DNA from: Alphaproteobacteria bacterium
GTDB lineage: Bacteria > Pseudomonadota > Alphaproteobacteria > SP197
Direction of reading: 5' to 3'
NCBI GenBank assembly: GCA_964291265.2
Contig: OZ219747.1
Location: forward strand, 3,872,001 to 3,936,000
Length of the DNA stretch: 64,000 nt
Below the pieces are notes generated by a model. That model was given only the letters and a program-made list of their open reading frames with translations. It did not search any database and was not told the origin of the DNA. Both the position numbers and the translations under genes were made by a program. This document shows, in pieces, positions 5,534 through 48,035 of the stretch. Every line of letters begins with the position of its first letter. Position 1 is the stretch's first letter.

Positions 5534-5647
5534 CGGGCCTTCGCGCGGCGTGCGCGATCAAGGCCCATTTGGCAAGGAAGGGCTGGCGGCCCTTGCCATG
5601 GCTCCTTGTCGGTAAGCGTTCGGCCACGCGGTGATTGTTGGTGATAT

Positions 5648-5955
5648 TCACCGGTTGAGGATGCGTTTGGGAGGCGCACCACGTGGCGGTTCGCTGTTGG
5701 GTCCGAAGACGATGGGTCCGGGTCGGGTTGCTCGTCGTTGGGGTGGCGGCAGGGTGATGAGGCCGTCGCGGTGCATGGCCAGAAAGGCGACATTCGCCAT
5801 CATGTTCTTGAGGCCCCGTCGGGCTTGTATCAGCCGGTCTCGCGGCAGAAGGCGCGGGCGATGGCCGCACGGGTGGGGTGCTGGGTGATCAGGGAGCGCA
5901 ACAGCGCCATCTCGTGCGCGGTGAAGTCACGGCCGTCGTAACGGCACTCGATCAC
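5648..5955 (-). pseudogene. DUF4338 (DruA-like) passenger gene remnant with nonsense, frameshift and internal deletion
   Basis: GTG overlapping the tnpC stop gives MIECRYDGRDFTAHEMALLRSLI...FCRETG*YKPDG, then frameshifted GLKNMMANVAFLAMHRDGLITLPPP...PIVFGPNSEPP, and a final KRILNR* at 5648. Family assignment is from memory of DUF4338 N- and C-termini. Confidence 0.6.
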
Positions 5956-8408
5956 CCCGGTTCCATGAGGTCCCTTCGACGCTCCGGGGTCATCGACCAT
6001 GGCAGCCACGGGTCGAGGTCATCCGGCGGCTTGCCGCCGTTCTGCGCGCAGGCCTCAAGCCACTCATGAAGCCAGCGCCGAACATTGATGTTGTTCATGG
6101 CAAGGGTGCCGATGACCGAGTACATGATGGCGGTGAAGGCGGCGCCTTCCTCGCTGTCGGAGCCGAAGCTCAGCTTTCTCGCGGTCACCGCACCCCGGAG
6201 GGTTCTCTCGGCAAAGTTGTTGTCCATGGGCACCTGGGGATGGTCGACAAAGACGCACAGTCCCTCGCGGTGACGGATCAGGGAACGCAAGGGCTTCGCT
6301 TCGCGTGCACCCTCGGGCAAGGCGTCGAGTTCCTCCTGAGCCTGCCTGAACAGCGCCTCGACAGCCGCACGAAGGTCCTTCTGCAGGGCATTGAACCTCG
6401 CTGACTGACGCTTGCGTGCGGGATCGTAGTGCTTCAGCCGTTGCCCATTCAGTGTGTAGATCAGCGCGATCCTGTCGAGCCACTTGTCGCACCACTCTTC
6501 CAGCCCCTCTTGGCCTGCCGCAGCCTCGATCACATCGCGCCTGGAGTGCGCCCAGCAAAGGCAGAGGATCACCTTGCCATCAAGCTCACGCTCCAGTTTC
6601 CTGTAGACCACGTAGCGGTCGCAAACAAGGAAGACGACACCTTCGGTGGAGGCGAACAGCACCATGGCCACCCGGGTGCTGCGTGACGGGTCGATAAGGA
6701 AGAAGACGGAGTCGGCGCTGACCGCGGTCCACAGCCAGGCCTTCTGCGAGCGCCCCGAGGCCTTGAGGGACTGGATGCGCCAGCTGGTCTCGTCGCCGTG
6801 GCGCACCGTCAGCCGGTTCTGATGATCGAGGATGGCCTGAGCGAGAGGCGCGAACATCGGCGTCATCTTCTTCATGCCGCCAGCGATCGTTCCCGGCGCC
6901 ATCGGCAGTCCCTGGTCTTCCAGCCATCGCGAGACCCGGCGCAGGGGACGCAAGCAGGCGAAGCGCTCATAGAGCACGCATGCCCAGACACTGATGCCGA
7001 AGGGGGTATTCGCAAGCAAGCGCAAAGGTGGCGGCGCGATGATCTCCGCAGGCGCCGACGAACACTGACAACCACGGCGCCAACGCCCACGTTCAATCCG
7101 CCGGATATGAGCCTTGACATGGACCTCCATGATCGAGGTCTCGTGGCTGCCGTTGGCCACATAGGGCTCGCCGCAACACGGGCACGTGCGCTGCGATGCC
7201 GGTGGATCATGGCGTTCGTGCTTCTCCTTGAGCTTCGGACGCGGAGTGCGCCCGTGGCCGCTCTTGCCGGGTTGCTGACCCCGCTTGTTCCCGGTGCCTT
7301 CCTTCTTCTTCCGTTTCTCGCTCTTCGACCCGAAGCGCGCCGTCGCGTGCTTGGCACGCGTCCCGCGGAGATTCCTCAGCTCGCTCGCCTGTTCAGCGTT
7401 CTTGAGCTTCAGAGCGTCCCTTTCCCGCTCCAGCGCCTCCGCTCGGGCCTGTCCACGCTTCACCTCCCGGCGAGCCTCCTTGAGCTGATCACGAGTGCGG
7501 TCGAGATGAAACTTGAATGTGCCCGCACGGGCACGGGCAGAATTCTTCGCACGGCGCAGGTCAGACGCGGTAGGGATGCGCATTGCTGCGCACCCCCCGC
7601 GCAGATCCGGACGTGGACGTTAATCCATCCGGCTCCTACCTCGGGTACTGGACGGCAAACCACTGGACTAGCCTGCGGCTTCCCGTATCCGATCCGCCGC
7701 CTGTGGCACGCTTGCCCGACACTGCGTTCGGTGCGTGCTTTAGCGTCCCGGATTCCCCTTGGTTGAGGCCCTTTCCTCCAGCGACTCCGCAGAAGCTAAC
7801 GCTTCCTTGTTCGCCGCCTTCACAGGTACTACGGCCTCATCCGACTTCTTCAAACCGTACATCATAGGCTTCGGTTTTCTCCTTCCCCATGCGGTCCCGC
7901 CACAACCGGCGGGACGGTTTGAAGATCTCCCAGGGTCCCAACAGAAGGCGTGCGGACGTGCATGGGTTCTCTGACACCGCGGGGCTCGCCGACATCTCAC
8001 CAAATCGATGCCTGCGATGTTGCCTTCGACCAATGCGAAAGCCTCGGCACCCCGGATGATAGCTTTTTCGGTGCTCATTAGCCCTGCCCATCCGTACCGC
8101 TACCGACGCTTCGCCTGCCCCCTCGCGGGAACCGACGCACGGCTCGCGGAGAAACGTGGTTTGGTTACTCCTTCGTTCCAGGGGACTTTCACCCCCTACC
8201 TTCCGCCAGTTCGCCTGGCACACCGCATACGCGCTTCCGCCGCATCCGCACGAACCCGCTCCGCCTCATAGAGCGCACGCCAGTCAGGCGCCTCGCATGA
8301 CAAGGCCACTGACGCCCGACATAGGCCGTCACCACCTCCCGTCAGCTGCTGTGTCGCTCCGCGCGTCTCGGCAAAAGTCTTCATGGCCTCGACCATAATC
8401 GAGACCAA
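5952..8408 (-). CDS. tnpC: IS66 transposase TnpC interrupted by a group II intron (exon 1 8408-8224, exon 2 7563-5952; ~598 aa spliced)
   Basis: Coiled-coil N-terminus, CPCCG zinc finger, DDE motifs HGDETSW, LVCDRY, CWAHSRR, DNNFAERTLR. The exon join CG|T gives ...AEARMR-DLRRAKNSAR... in frame. Start could be 8408 (TTG), 8396 or 8384. Confidence 0.9.
7564..8223 (-). mobile_element. ORF-less group II intron (IIB-type, tentatively bacterial class E), 660 nt
   Basis: 5' GUGUG at 8223. Domain V GAGCCGGATGGATTAACGTCCACGTCCGGATC (7635-7604) with AGC triad. Domain VI hairpin ending CCCTACCGCGTC with bulged A at -8. Putative EBS1 CGCAU (8037-8033) complementary to exon end AUGCG. Only stubs of the intron-encoded protein (IEP) remain: MMYGLKKSDEAVVP...RIREAA and QWFAVQYPR. 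Confidence 0.92.
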
Positions 8409-8713
8409 ACGAGTTTACCAGCACTTTCTCAGACGATAGTCAGCAAGACCCAAACCAACCAAAATCAGCCATCACCGAACGGCCGAACGCTTACCCTTGT
8501 CGTGAGTGCTTGCGCGGTTCCCCGGAACGGCCATCACCCCGCAGGGATGCCCGCGATCTCCGAGGTCATCGCGGTCGCGTTGCAACGATGAGCATCCCGG
8601 CGCAGCGCCGTCTGCCGCCGGGCCTCTCCGTGGCGCCATCGAGGGACTGGTCCGTCGAGTCCTTCGACGATGCGGTGATCCGGATAGAGGAAACGGTCTT
8701 GACAGGGGAGAAC

Positions 8714-8772
8714 GCGCCCACCATGTGTGTTGGCACTCGACATCAGCGAGTGCCAACACACATGGTGGGCGC
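8714..8772 (+). promoter_or_regulatory. CIRCE (HrcA operator, 8730-8756) inside an extended perfect inverted repeat; CTTGACA -35-like element at 8698-8704
   Basis: TTGGCACTC-N9-GAGTGCCAA; arms extend to GCGCCCACCATGTGTGTTGGCACTC / GAGTGCCAACACACATGGTGGGCGC. Confidence 0.92.
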
Positions 8773-8805
8773 CGGTCCCGCCACTCACGAAGAGGAAGAG
8801 AGCTC

Positions 8806-9090
8806 ATGGGTTTCAGACCGTTGCATGACCGTGTTCTCGTGCGCCGTACTGACAGCGACGATGTGTCCACGGGTGGGATCATCATCCCTGACACTGCCAG
8901 GGAAAAGCCGATGGAAGGCGAAGTGATTGCCGTCGGACCGGGAGCACGTGACGACCGCGGCTCCGTTCAGCCCCTCGATGTCGCCAAGGGTGACCGGGTG
9001 CTGTTCGGCAAGTGGTCAGGCACCGAAATCAAGATCGACGGCGAGGAACTCCTCGTCATGAGGGAATCCGACATCATGGGTGTTCTCTAG
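8806..9090 (+). CDS. groES: Co-chaperonin GroES (copy 1)
   Basis: [14 protein letters not shown]...[24 protein letters not shown]; purine-rich RBS upstream of ATG 8806. Confidence 0.97.
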
Positions 9091-9120
9091 GGCGACAGCC
9101 GCTCTGCACCCGCACCCTAA

Positions 9121-10809
<1,689 letters not shown>

Positions 10810-46501: not shown

Positions 46502-47744
46502 GCCAGGGGCATACACGAGGCGGCCACCGACGACAACGCCCCCTTGACGGCTGCCTCGACCGAGGCGTCCCCCCTGATCCCACAACTGACGTTCGCGCCG
46601 GCAATCCCGATGATCATCGCGGAACCGTTTTCTTTCGCGATCCGCCACGAGCCGGTGGCACAGGAGGTCTGGGAGCGTTCCGATTCGATGACAGTCATCG
46701 CCCGGTGGGCATTCACTGAGAACCACGAGACCCGTGACGTGCCGTTTCTGCGACAATGGCCGCGGCGTTCAGGTGGAATTCGAGAACCGACGCCCGCCCC
46801 AGATCCGTGGCGATCCTTCTGCCGCATCAGGGGCGGCATAGTGGAACTACCAACGAGGCTGCTCCACAGCCGGAAGCCCAAGCCTGACGGGACCTATCGC
46901 TCGAGCCCGTTCTGCCATGCGGTCGAGGGAATCACCGAGCGAGCGAGCGAGATCGTGGCCAGACGCGGACCGCGTCCGGTTGCGCTCTGTCGGGGCGCCT
47001 GCAGCATGGTGATCCCCGCGACCGTGCCGTCGCACTTGCCTGCATGGAGGCGGTCAGAACGCCGTCGGCGTTCGATGCAAGCGCCATTGACCAGCCGGCA
47101 AGCCCAGGCGCTGCATGGACGTTGGCAGGGCCGTCTCCGGCCTTCGAGACAAGGGTTGTCACTCTCCTCATCGGCACCGTGATGCAGTTCCTGGAGCCGG
47201 CGTCGTCTCCATGGTTCCGATGTTGAGGCCACCTGCCTGACGAACAGGTCCGCGAGTGGGGCGCACATCGCGGCCACTTGCTCTGCGTCGACGACGGCTT
47301 CGACCGCTACACCGGTCAGCCGCTCATGGGCAACGTCGCGGTCAACGTGCGGGCGGCGCATCCCCTGCAGTCGACCGAGTTCCCTCGCATGCTCGCGGAC
47401 CGCGAACTCGGCCTCCCTGCTCAGGAAGGTTCGGCGAGGCCGTGCACGTCGCCCACCTTGGCGGCCATGGCGACCTCAAGCATGGTCTCGATCCCGGCAG
47501 TCAGATCACATGTTCAGACCCGCTTCATCAGAACCGCCGCAAGACACCTCGTCGGGTTCCGGGGCCGGTCAGAGCGTGTGCAGCACCAGGAACGACAACC
47601 GCTGCTGCGTCATGTTTGTCATGACTCGACAAGACCGGCTGCCATCCCGGGCTGTCGGTGCGGCGGTGATGGCCGGAGAAGCCTGGGTGCCGTGATGCTG
47701 CGGAAAAAGGGTTGCATGGCGGCGGCGGTACGACTATATGACGG

Positions 47745-48003
47745 GTTGCCCGGTGCGCCGGGCTATGGCGATAAATGTCGTTCGGAATAGACGTTGCGGA
47801 CGCGGGGGCAGTACCCGCCGCCTCCACCATCAACCCATGGGGGCGAACCAGGATCGACGTGCGTGGCAAAGGTGCGATTTTCGCCCGGCATGATACCGCC
47901 GTTATCGGGTCAATCACACAAACGCCAACGACAACGAGGCGTTCGCTGTCGCCGCTTGAGCGACAAGCGCGGTTTGGAGGGCACCGGGCAACAGAAGCCC
48001 TCC
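47745..48003 (+). ncRNA. ssrA: Two-piece (circularly permuted) alphaproteobacterial tmRNA; tag peptide ANDNEAFAVAA
   Basis: Acceptor piece ends ...GCCGCCTCCACCA (47829), followed by a 9-nt spacer. Coding piece starts GGGGGCG (47839; G3-U pair with CGCCTCC). Tag ORF 47924-47959. GTTGCCCGGTGC pairs with the distal GCACCGGGCAAC. Upstream of sspB. Confidence 0.93.
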
Positions 48004-48035
48004 GTCATGTCATTCCCTGACGGTCCGAACGAGCG

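Follow-up and report, generated by a model that had tools for sequence, protein, structure and literature searches.

An ORF-less group IIB intron inside an IS66 transposase gene, likely spread by retrohoming with the maturase of a full-length sister intron

How does a group II intron that has lost its own reverse transcriptase come to sit inside the transposase gene of an insertion sequence, and what becomes of that transposase? This question is raised by mini-intron M, which splits the tnpC gene of an IS66-family element in the window, i.e. the whole stretch of 64,000 nucleotides analysed here, taken from a genome of 4.83 Mb in two contigs, in which repeats make up about 24% of the large contig. 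The original prediction saw in M an element riding the IS, with splicing as a possible switch on IS mobility. We will argue instead that M, a group IIB intron that is not autonomous, probably spreads by retrohoming and probably does so with the endonuclease-less RT/maturase of a 94%-identical sister intron, F, and that IS66 is its landing site and not its vehicle, a reading to which we give a probability of about 0.83. The features concerned are collected in Table 1.

Table 1. Features of the split IS66 element, of mini-intron M and of its targets (window positions unless a locus is named).
Feature	Position	Strand	Basis
IS66-family element, 2,223 bp without intron, 14-bp terminal inverted repeats at 8481-8494 and 5612-5625	5612..8494	-	repeats; empty site in run X2
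tnpC exon 1, 61 codons + 2 nt, putative start codon	8224..8408	-	intron-free allele; conserved in homologs
tnpC exon 2 with DDE domain	5952..7563	-	PF03050, E 2e-50; NF033517 above cut-off
8-bp target-site duplication, tnpC-upstream copy	8495..8502	.	sequence
8-bp target-site duplication, tnpC-downstream copy	5604..5611	.	sequence
Empty target of F (insertion point 6779/6780), antisense to tnpC	6765..6784	+	intact and empty here; occupied in 11/27 IS copies
ORF-less group IIB intron (mini-intron M), 660 nt	7564..8223	-	Rfam matches, 13 identical copies, precise-excision alleles
Domain I core of M	7965..8189	-	RF02005, 170.2 bits
Putative EBS2, intron nt 161-166, presumed register	8058..8063	-	5/6 paired to exon -15..-10; relatives vary most in this stretch
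EBS1 CGCAUU, intron nt 187-192	8032..8037	-	5/6 paired to the exon end; in relatives, covariation with the exon ends
EBS3 = A, intron nt 252, pairing with first base of exon 2 (T)	7972..7972	-	A in M, G in F, C in variant, each complementary to its own +1 base
Domain III of M, approximate limits	7764..7839	-	predicted fold in M and sister F; weak RF01998 match, 19.2 bits, below cut-off
N-terminal IEP-frame remnant, TAA after 41 codons	7740..7865	-	frame read of M
Junction of the ~1.26-kb deletion that took out the RT/maturase ORF	7671..7672	-	alignment to full-length sister F
Domain V with AGC triad (7634-7632)	7603..7635	-	RF00029 alignment; fold
Domain VI, bulged A at 7571, ATG at 7583 in frame with exon 2	7566..7600	-	RF00029 alignment; fold
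3' end of M, UC and not consensus AY	7564..7565	-	AC in sister F and in 4/4 relatives with the 3' end in view
M in host peptide-ABC ATPase copies	L003:2838-3497 and L004 = C2:2219838 and 2242635		gene split before C-terminal cysteine motif in both

IS66 elements have GTAA-type inverted repeats and duplicate 8 bp of their target, and the accessory genes tnpA and tnpB are absent in the ISBst12 group of the family. The element in the window has a TnpC with the DDE domain (PF03050, NF033517) and GTAA-type inverted repeats flanked by the 8-bp duplication, which bears out the intact ends that had been proposed for it; the duplication is found in 18 of the 21 IS66 copies tested. The tnpC gene occupies most of the 2,223 bp, with no accessory ORF ahead of it, and a promoter scan of window 7400-8900 found no sigma-70 site. 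Several IS66 copies (e.g. C2 181806-184069 and 2745082-2748001) have a different right-end region past nt 2068, with the same terminal repeat and perfect target duplications. Many short genome matches cover the IS66 ends only, and at window 5665-8415 contigs in runs X2 and X3 join both IS ends with 2,749 nt skipped (side under 30 nt); both may possibly reflect a miniature derivative of the element. Directly beside the IS lie what we take to be groES-groEL (8806-10809), with an inverted repeat upstream of them at about 8722-8773, and a permuted alphaproteobacterial tmRNA is present at 47708-48005.

The intron lies in tnpC in the sense orientation, and its excision had been predicted to restore a single frame of about 598 codons. 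Natural intron-free alleles have exactly this junction. The IS66 copy at C2:927480-929703, which is the intron-free copy that the original prediction proposed to look for, encodes a 598-aa TnpC reading AEARMRDLRRAK, and in contigs of runs X1 and X2 the sequence passes directly from 7563 to 8224, leaving out exactly the 660 nt. All four runs compared consist of contigs from a single study, X1 being perhaps the source sample itself. As run X2 also has the locus without the whole IS, the IS insertion itself is polymorphic.

The boundaries, strand and length first proposed for M (8223-7564, minus strand, 660 nt, starting with GUGUG) proved right. Domain I matches the Rfam model group-II-D1D4-6 (RF02005) at 170.2 bits for a cut-off of 49, while domains V and VI, in which the predicted AGC triad and the bulged A at -8 are present, score 33.6 bits (E 1.2e-4) against Intron_gpII (RF00029), short of its gathering score of 40. 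The M strand folds with a z-score of -5.05, beating 20 of 20 shuffles. M thus has the GUGYG start, the domain I fold, the domain V triad and the domain VI bulged A of group IIB, and it departs from the family in its 3' end, UC where AY is expected. AY is a consensus and not a strict criterion, since the accepted member RmInt1 also deviates from it (CC; PMC4238363). The ribozyme domains are kept and the ORF is deleted, which supports the idea of a non-autonomous mini-intron; the two ORF stubs noticed earlier are real remnants, but the N-terminal one halts at its stop codon and the C-terminal one is in another frame. The insertion is precise and without target duplication, as seen from the intron-free alleles at both of its targets, and plasmid and PDB searches brought no resolution of the intron class.

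The exon pairings lead to the same assignment. The EBS1 originally read as CGCAU does face the exon end, but it is six bases long, with five of them paired. EBS1 pairs 5-6 of its 6 bases in 7/7 relatives, and the base at EBS3 complements exon base +1 in M, in F, in a variant of F and in the 4/4 relatives with the 3' end in view. The group IIB pairings amount in M to 5/6 for EBS1, 5/6 for EBS2 (in its presumed register) and 1/1 for EBS3. M therefore has the structure and pairings of a group IIB intron with a deviant 3' end, and it is predicted to be active. We also considered whether EBS pairing could strongly exclude M and F from each other's sites, but found nothing beyond EBS3 and one EBS1 base; with 11/13 pairs at its own site vs 10/13 at the IS site of F, the pairing of M would separate the two targets only modestly.

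An outside maturase, carried by a cognate full-length intron, had been postulated, and it exists. F measures 1,919 nt and differs from M at 42 positions, M being without some 1.26 kb of domain IV. Its intron-encoded protein (IEP) of 495 aa occurs in 14 identical copies and in two variant forms (99.6% and 97.7% identity); it matches TIGR04416 at 356 bits and has the YADD motif, and its termini presumably resemble those of bacterial class E. A domain search of this protein found RVT_1 and GIIM only and no endonuclease family, and the protein ends about 30 residues past GIIM. An RT and X domain without D/En is the architecture of the endonuclease-less bacterial classes, given as A, C, D, E and F/g (PMC3552965). 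The genome gives 16 full-length RVT_1 matches and two partial ones; the 16 are all of the F family, so F is the sole visible source of maturase. From the similarity of the two introns and the absence of another intact RT, we infer that the IEP of F binds and excises M RNA. M has what characterizes TeI3-like introns: a deleted ORF, a kept ribozyme, many near-identical copies at paired targets and a related intact IEP in the same genome. It did not arise from F by a recent deletion, having diverged from it in sequence and in all three pairing elements: EBS1 differs at one base, the putative EBS2 at four of six bases and EBS3 by A vs G. A variant full-length intron (L007, C2:1375030-1377785) likewise departs from F in EBS1 and in EBS3 (C), both of which match the different target that it occupies.

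The genome also holds a second, unrelated family of ORF-less group II introns (Rfam D1D4-4, 62-68 bits; L030:1060-2840 = C2:4089561-4091336 and related loci), made of units of about 0.8 kb nested as twintrons, in which one copy lies inside another, between its DV and DVI. About six twin copies, 98-99% alike, occupy varied sites, and 14 of 15 5' ends lie along the replication fork (copies not independent). No cognate RT for this family was found in the assembly, in which only the F family is intact.

The search for further copies of the mini-intron was fruitful, as the genome contains 16. Fourteen occupy the same IS66 site and two lie in a duplicated host gene for a peptide-ABC ATPase; 13 of the 16 are identical over 660 nt, one has a 5-nt deletion, one is split by an IS and one is both chimeric and interrupted. 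In the ABC-ATPase genes M is inserted in sense, within the C-terminal oligo_HPY region and upstream of the cysteine-rich motif, at a site that has an upstream exon motif in common with the IS66 site. The chimera is the second of these copies: its 5' half resembles F, its EBS1 differs, and it contains an insertion of 5.7 kb. In run X3, one contig carries the gene without the intron, with exactly 660 nt skipped. An IS110-family element lies at intron nt 8 in one M copy and in several full-length copies (L005:7820-9785 = C2:2668820-2670785; C2:2594.6k, 3032.8k and 3954k), so that the 5' end of the intron is itself a target; other intron copies are broken at nt 395-396. No contiguous match spanning the deletion junction was found in 22 same-genus genomes, nor in 100 relatives among the matches listed (5 candidates scored per genome), and the JGI metagenomes gave no exact match to the 24-nt pattern of the junction. 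Full-length relatives of the intron, at 85-86% identity, are present in 4 genomes.

Three lines of evidence bear on how M has spread. The first is the invariance of its copies. Among M-bearing IS copies, 12 are close to one another; their IS cores vary at 35 of 2,018 sites, from which 11.4 substitutions would be expected in the 660 nt of M, and M has none (P = 1e-5, overstated since the copies, some in duplicated regions and clusters, are not all independent). Over all 14 M-bearing copies there are 94 variable IS sites, for which 30.7 would be expected in the intron, and one identical M sits in an IS haplotype that is 99 substitutions distant. The low variation of M could have other causes as well, namely selection on the ribozyme or gene conversion. 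Mohr et al. used the invariance argument likewise for the twintrons of T. elongatus (PMC2882425). The IS66 copies themselves are mosaics, and their tree, which left out one short row (F_3037k), is poorly supported, with 4 of 23 branches starred, and too weak to order events. The second line is the ABC-ATPase gene, a non-IS target, so that IS transposition is not the source of these copies.

The third is the orientation of the copies. Co-orientation of an intron with the replication fork means insertion into the lagging-strand template. There are two turning points in the GC skew of the genome, near 0.72-0.79 Mb and near 3.29-3.31 Mb, and dnaA lies at 0.647 Mb. Leaving out the origin and terminus zones (0.60-0.95 and 3.2-3.4 Mb), 13 of 14 M copies (P = 9e-4) and 15 of 16 5' ends of F (P = 3e-4) are co-oriented with the fork, P values that non-independent copies again inflate; with all copies and the origin set at 0.72 Mb, the counts are 14/16 and 17/18. 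Control pieces of IS66 are unbiased (13/23 and 9/22), and a fork bias at P < 0.05 is seen in only 4 of the 35 repeat families that measure 700 bp or more, all 4 of them group II intron sequence. A lagging-strand-template pathway has been reported for the endonuclease-less RmInt1, RmInt2 and Sr.md.I1 (PMC1802570, PMC4615759), class D, E and ORF-less introns are described as having a moderate genome-wide fork bias (PMC8919778), and ORF-less introns as keeping their target pairings under selection for trans-mobility (PMC8643678).

Taken together, copy invariance, a non-IS target and fork co-orientation in an unbiased IS argue for retrohoming in trans and against riding as the main story, although part of the copies may ride: the riding share is estimated near 17%, with a 95% upper bound of 59-68%. 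One IS-borne copy (C2:2579874) is head-on and has a perfect target duplication, and it may have ridden the IS; on a local inversion behind this copy, skew and KOPS counts carry no information at 2.54-2.59 Mb, where most of the sequence is repeats. The same evidence weighs on the idea that M is dead, and that its copies were spread by IS transposition and by gene conversion between IS copies. The non-consensus 3' end, the EBS1 mismatch and the mosaic IS haplotypes agree with it, but neither process places M precisely in an unrelated gene, that of the ABC-ATPase, or gives it a fork bias not shared by the IS itself, so we hold this idea to be very improbable.

For retrohoming in trans, the steps would be as follows. 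The IEP of F would bind M RNA and excise it, the resulting RNP would reverse-splice into the single-stranded lagging-strand template, and the nascent lagging strand would serve as primer, as in RmInt1. M reads the sense strand of tnpC and F the antisense strand, so each would reach IS copies of one orientation only.

The distribution of both introns among the IS66 copies follows this pattern. F inserts into the same IS66 at the window equivalent of 6779/6780, on the strand opposite tnpC. Of 27 IS66 copies, 24 are hit by M and/or F: 13 have M only, 10 F only and 1 both, with 3 having neither (Fisher P = 3e-4). M is present in 12/16 copies with tnpC along the fork vs 2/11 head-on ones (P = 0.006), and F in 2/16 vs 9/11 (P = 0.0009). 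As the M-type site is intact but empty in 10/10 F-only copies, and the F site intact in 13/13 M-only copies, the exclusion follows from orientation and not from site decay: the two introns target opposite strands, each reaching one IS orientation, hence their near-exclusive occupancy. The single copy that holds both has no target duplication and may be a recombinant. Each ingredient of this system is known, and the partition of the strands between helper and mini-intron is its notable part; among titles and abstract openings, a thin basis, we found no two introns using opposite strands of one IS.

What remains is the effect on the transposase. An antisense intron such as F cannot be spliced from tnpC mRNA. 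The penultimate base of M is U, vs A in F and in the 4/4 relatives, and in RmInt1 in vitro U at this position is, like G, among the most damaging second-step substitutions (PMC4238363). By analogy, the UC end of M likely lowers exon ligation, and it is predicted to weaken the second splicing step, the reverse of which retrohoming needs. For RmInt1 in ISRm2011-2, splicing has been described as essential for IS mobility, with exon ligation below 1%, and 0.07% in vivo (PMC3035460, PMC4238363). With F unspliceable and M repaired at a low rate, the net effect on IS66 would be a damping of the transposase, and we infer that M and F damp TnpC rather than switch it.

M could also ride the IS, its maturase-dependent splicing being the switch that gates most transposition. 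This fits the sense orientation of M and its precise, frame-restoring junction, and the head-on copy with its perfect target duplication. Moreover, 7 IS copies with M only have an open frame and both ends, vs 2 intron-free copies with an open 600-codon tnpC frame, both ends and a target duplication, so that efficient splicing would make the former the main source of TnpC. The 2 intact intron-free copies nevertheless mean that splicing is not required for TnpC in this genome, the rate in RmInt1 and the penultimate U speak against efficient splicing, and the fork bias and the invariance of M against riding as the main route. A switch on IS mobility is thus only weakly indicated, a concept that is moreover already in print for RmInt1 and ISRm2011-2 (PMC4238363, PMC3035460), and we regard its combination with riding as unlikely.

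A more elaborate scenario, doubtful though somewhat less so, is that M was retargeted to the IS66 strand that its helper F cannot reach, and that the A-to-U change at the penultimate base keeps M mobile but chokes exon ligation; the two introns would form a two-strand lock on the IS family, with the helper maturase gating most of the remaining transposase. Splicing could finally be bypassed, unspliced RNA being translated from the domain VI ATG into a 543-aa TnpC that works without its N-terminus. The 543-aa frame from 7583 is open and includes the whole DDE domain, and a G-rich stretch lies upstream of the ATG; this stretch is, however, predicted to be fully paired in the domain VI stem, and the 62 lost N-terminal residues carry motifs conserved in 9/9 TnpC homologs aligned, which were picked for near-full coverage from 120 listed. 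Such a bypass is the least credible of all these possibilities.

The reading that we prefer, retrohoming with the helper F and damping of TnpC, makes of this genome a clean natural experiment, seen from sequence alone, in which an ORF-less intron and its endonuclease-less helper split one IS family by replication orientation. M is also a compact natural construct of 660 nt with defined targets, on which trans-mobilisation, lagging-strand homing and damping vs gating of IS transposition can be studied. More generally, copy variation and orientation should be checked before an intron inside a transposase is taken to ride the IS.

The closest parallel is found in Thermosynechococcus elongatus, in the TeI3 introns and the IEP of their driver TeI4c, as described by Mohr et al. 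(PMC2882425). In both cases many ORF-less copies derive from one domain IV deletion, with N- and C-terminal ORF remnants, and have their own EBS sequences, a related full-length helper intron and targets in mobile elements; identical inner introns in diverged hosts were likewise read as independent homing. The TeI3/TeI4c IEPs, however, have an endonuclease domain, whereas that of F has none, with a strong fork bias as a result, and unlike them F and M target opposite strands of one IS. Trans-mobilisation is experimental in that system and, for M, deduced. RmInt1 in ISRm2011-2 and Sr.md.I1 in an IS66 transposase (class D/IIB3; PMC3035460, PMC4238363, PMC4615759, PMC1802570) resemble M and F in their endonuclease-less IEP, their lagging-template bias, their position in sense within a transposase, which can then be expressed only after splicing, and, as in M, a penultimate pyrimidine (base -2 is U in M and C in these introns; PMC4238363). 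They encode their own IEP, whereas M is a natural ORF-less form with a separate helper, from a different lineage. Finally, RmInt2 in the inverted repeats of ISRm17 (PMC4615759) also exemplifies an IS that offers intron targets on both replication strands, but there a single intron uses two inverted repeats, whereas M and F are sister introns whose two sites are unrelated and lie on opposite strands.
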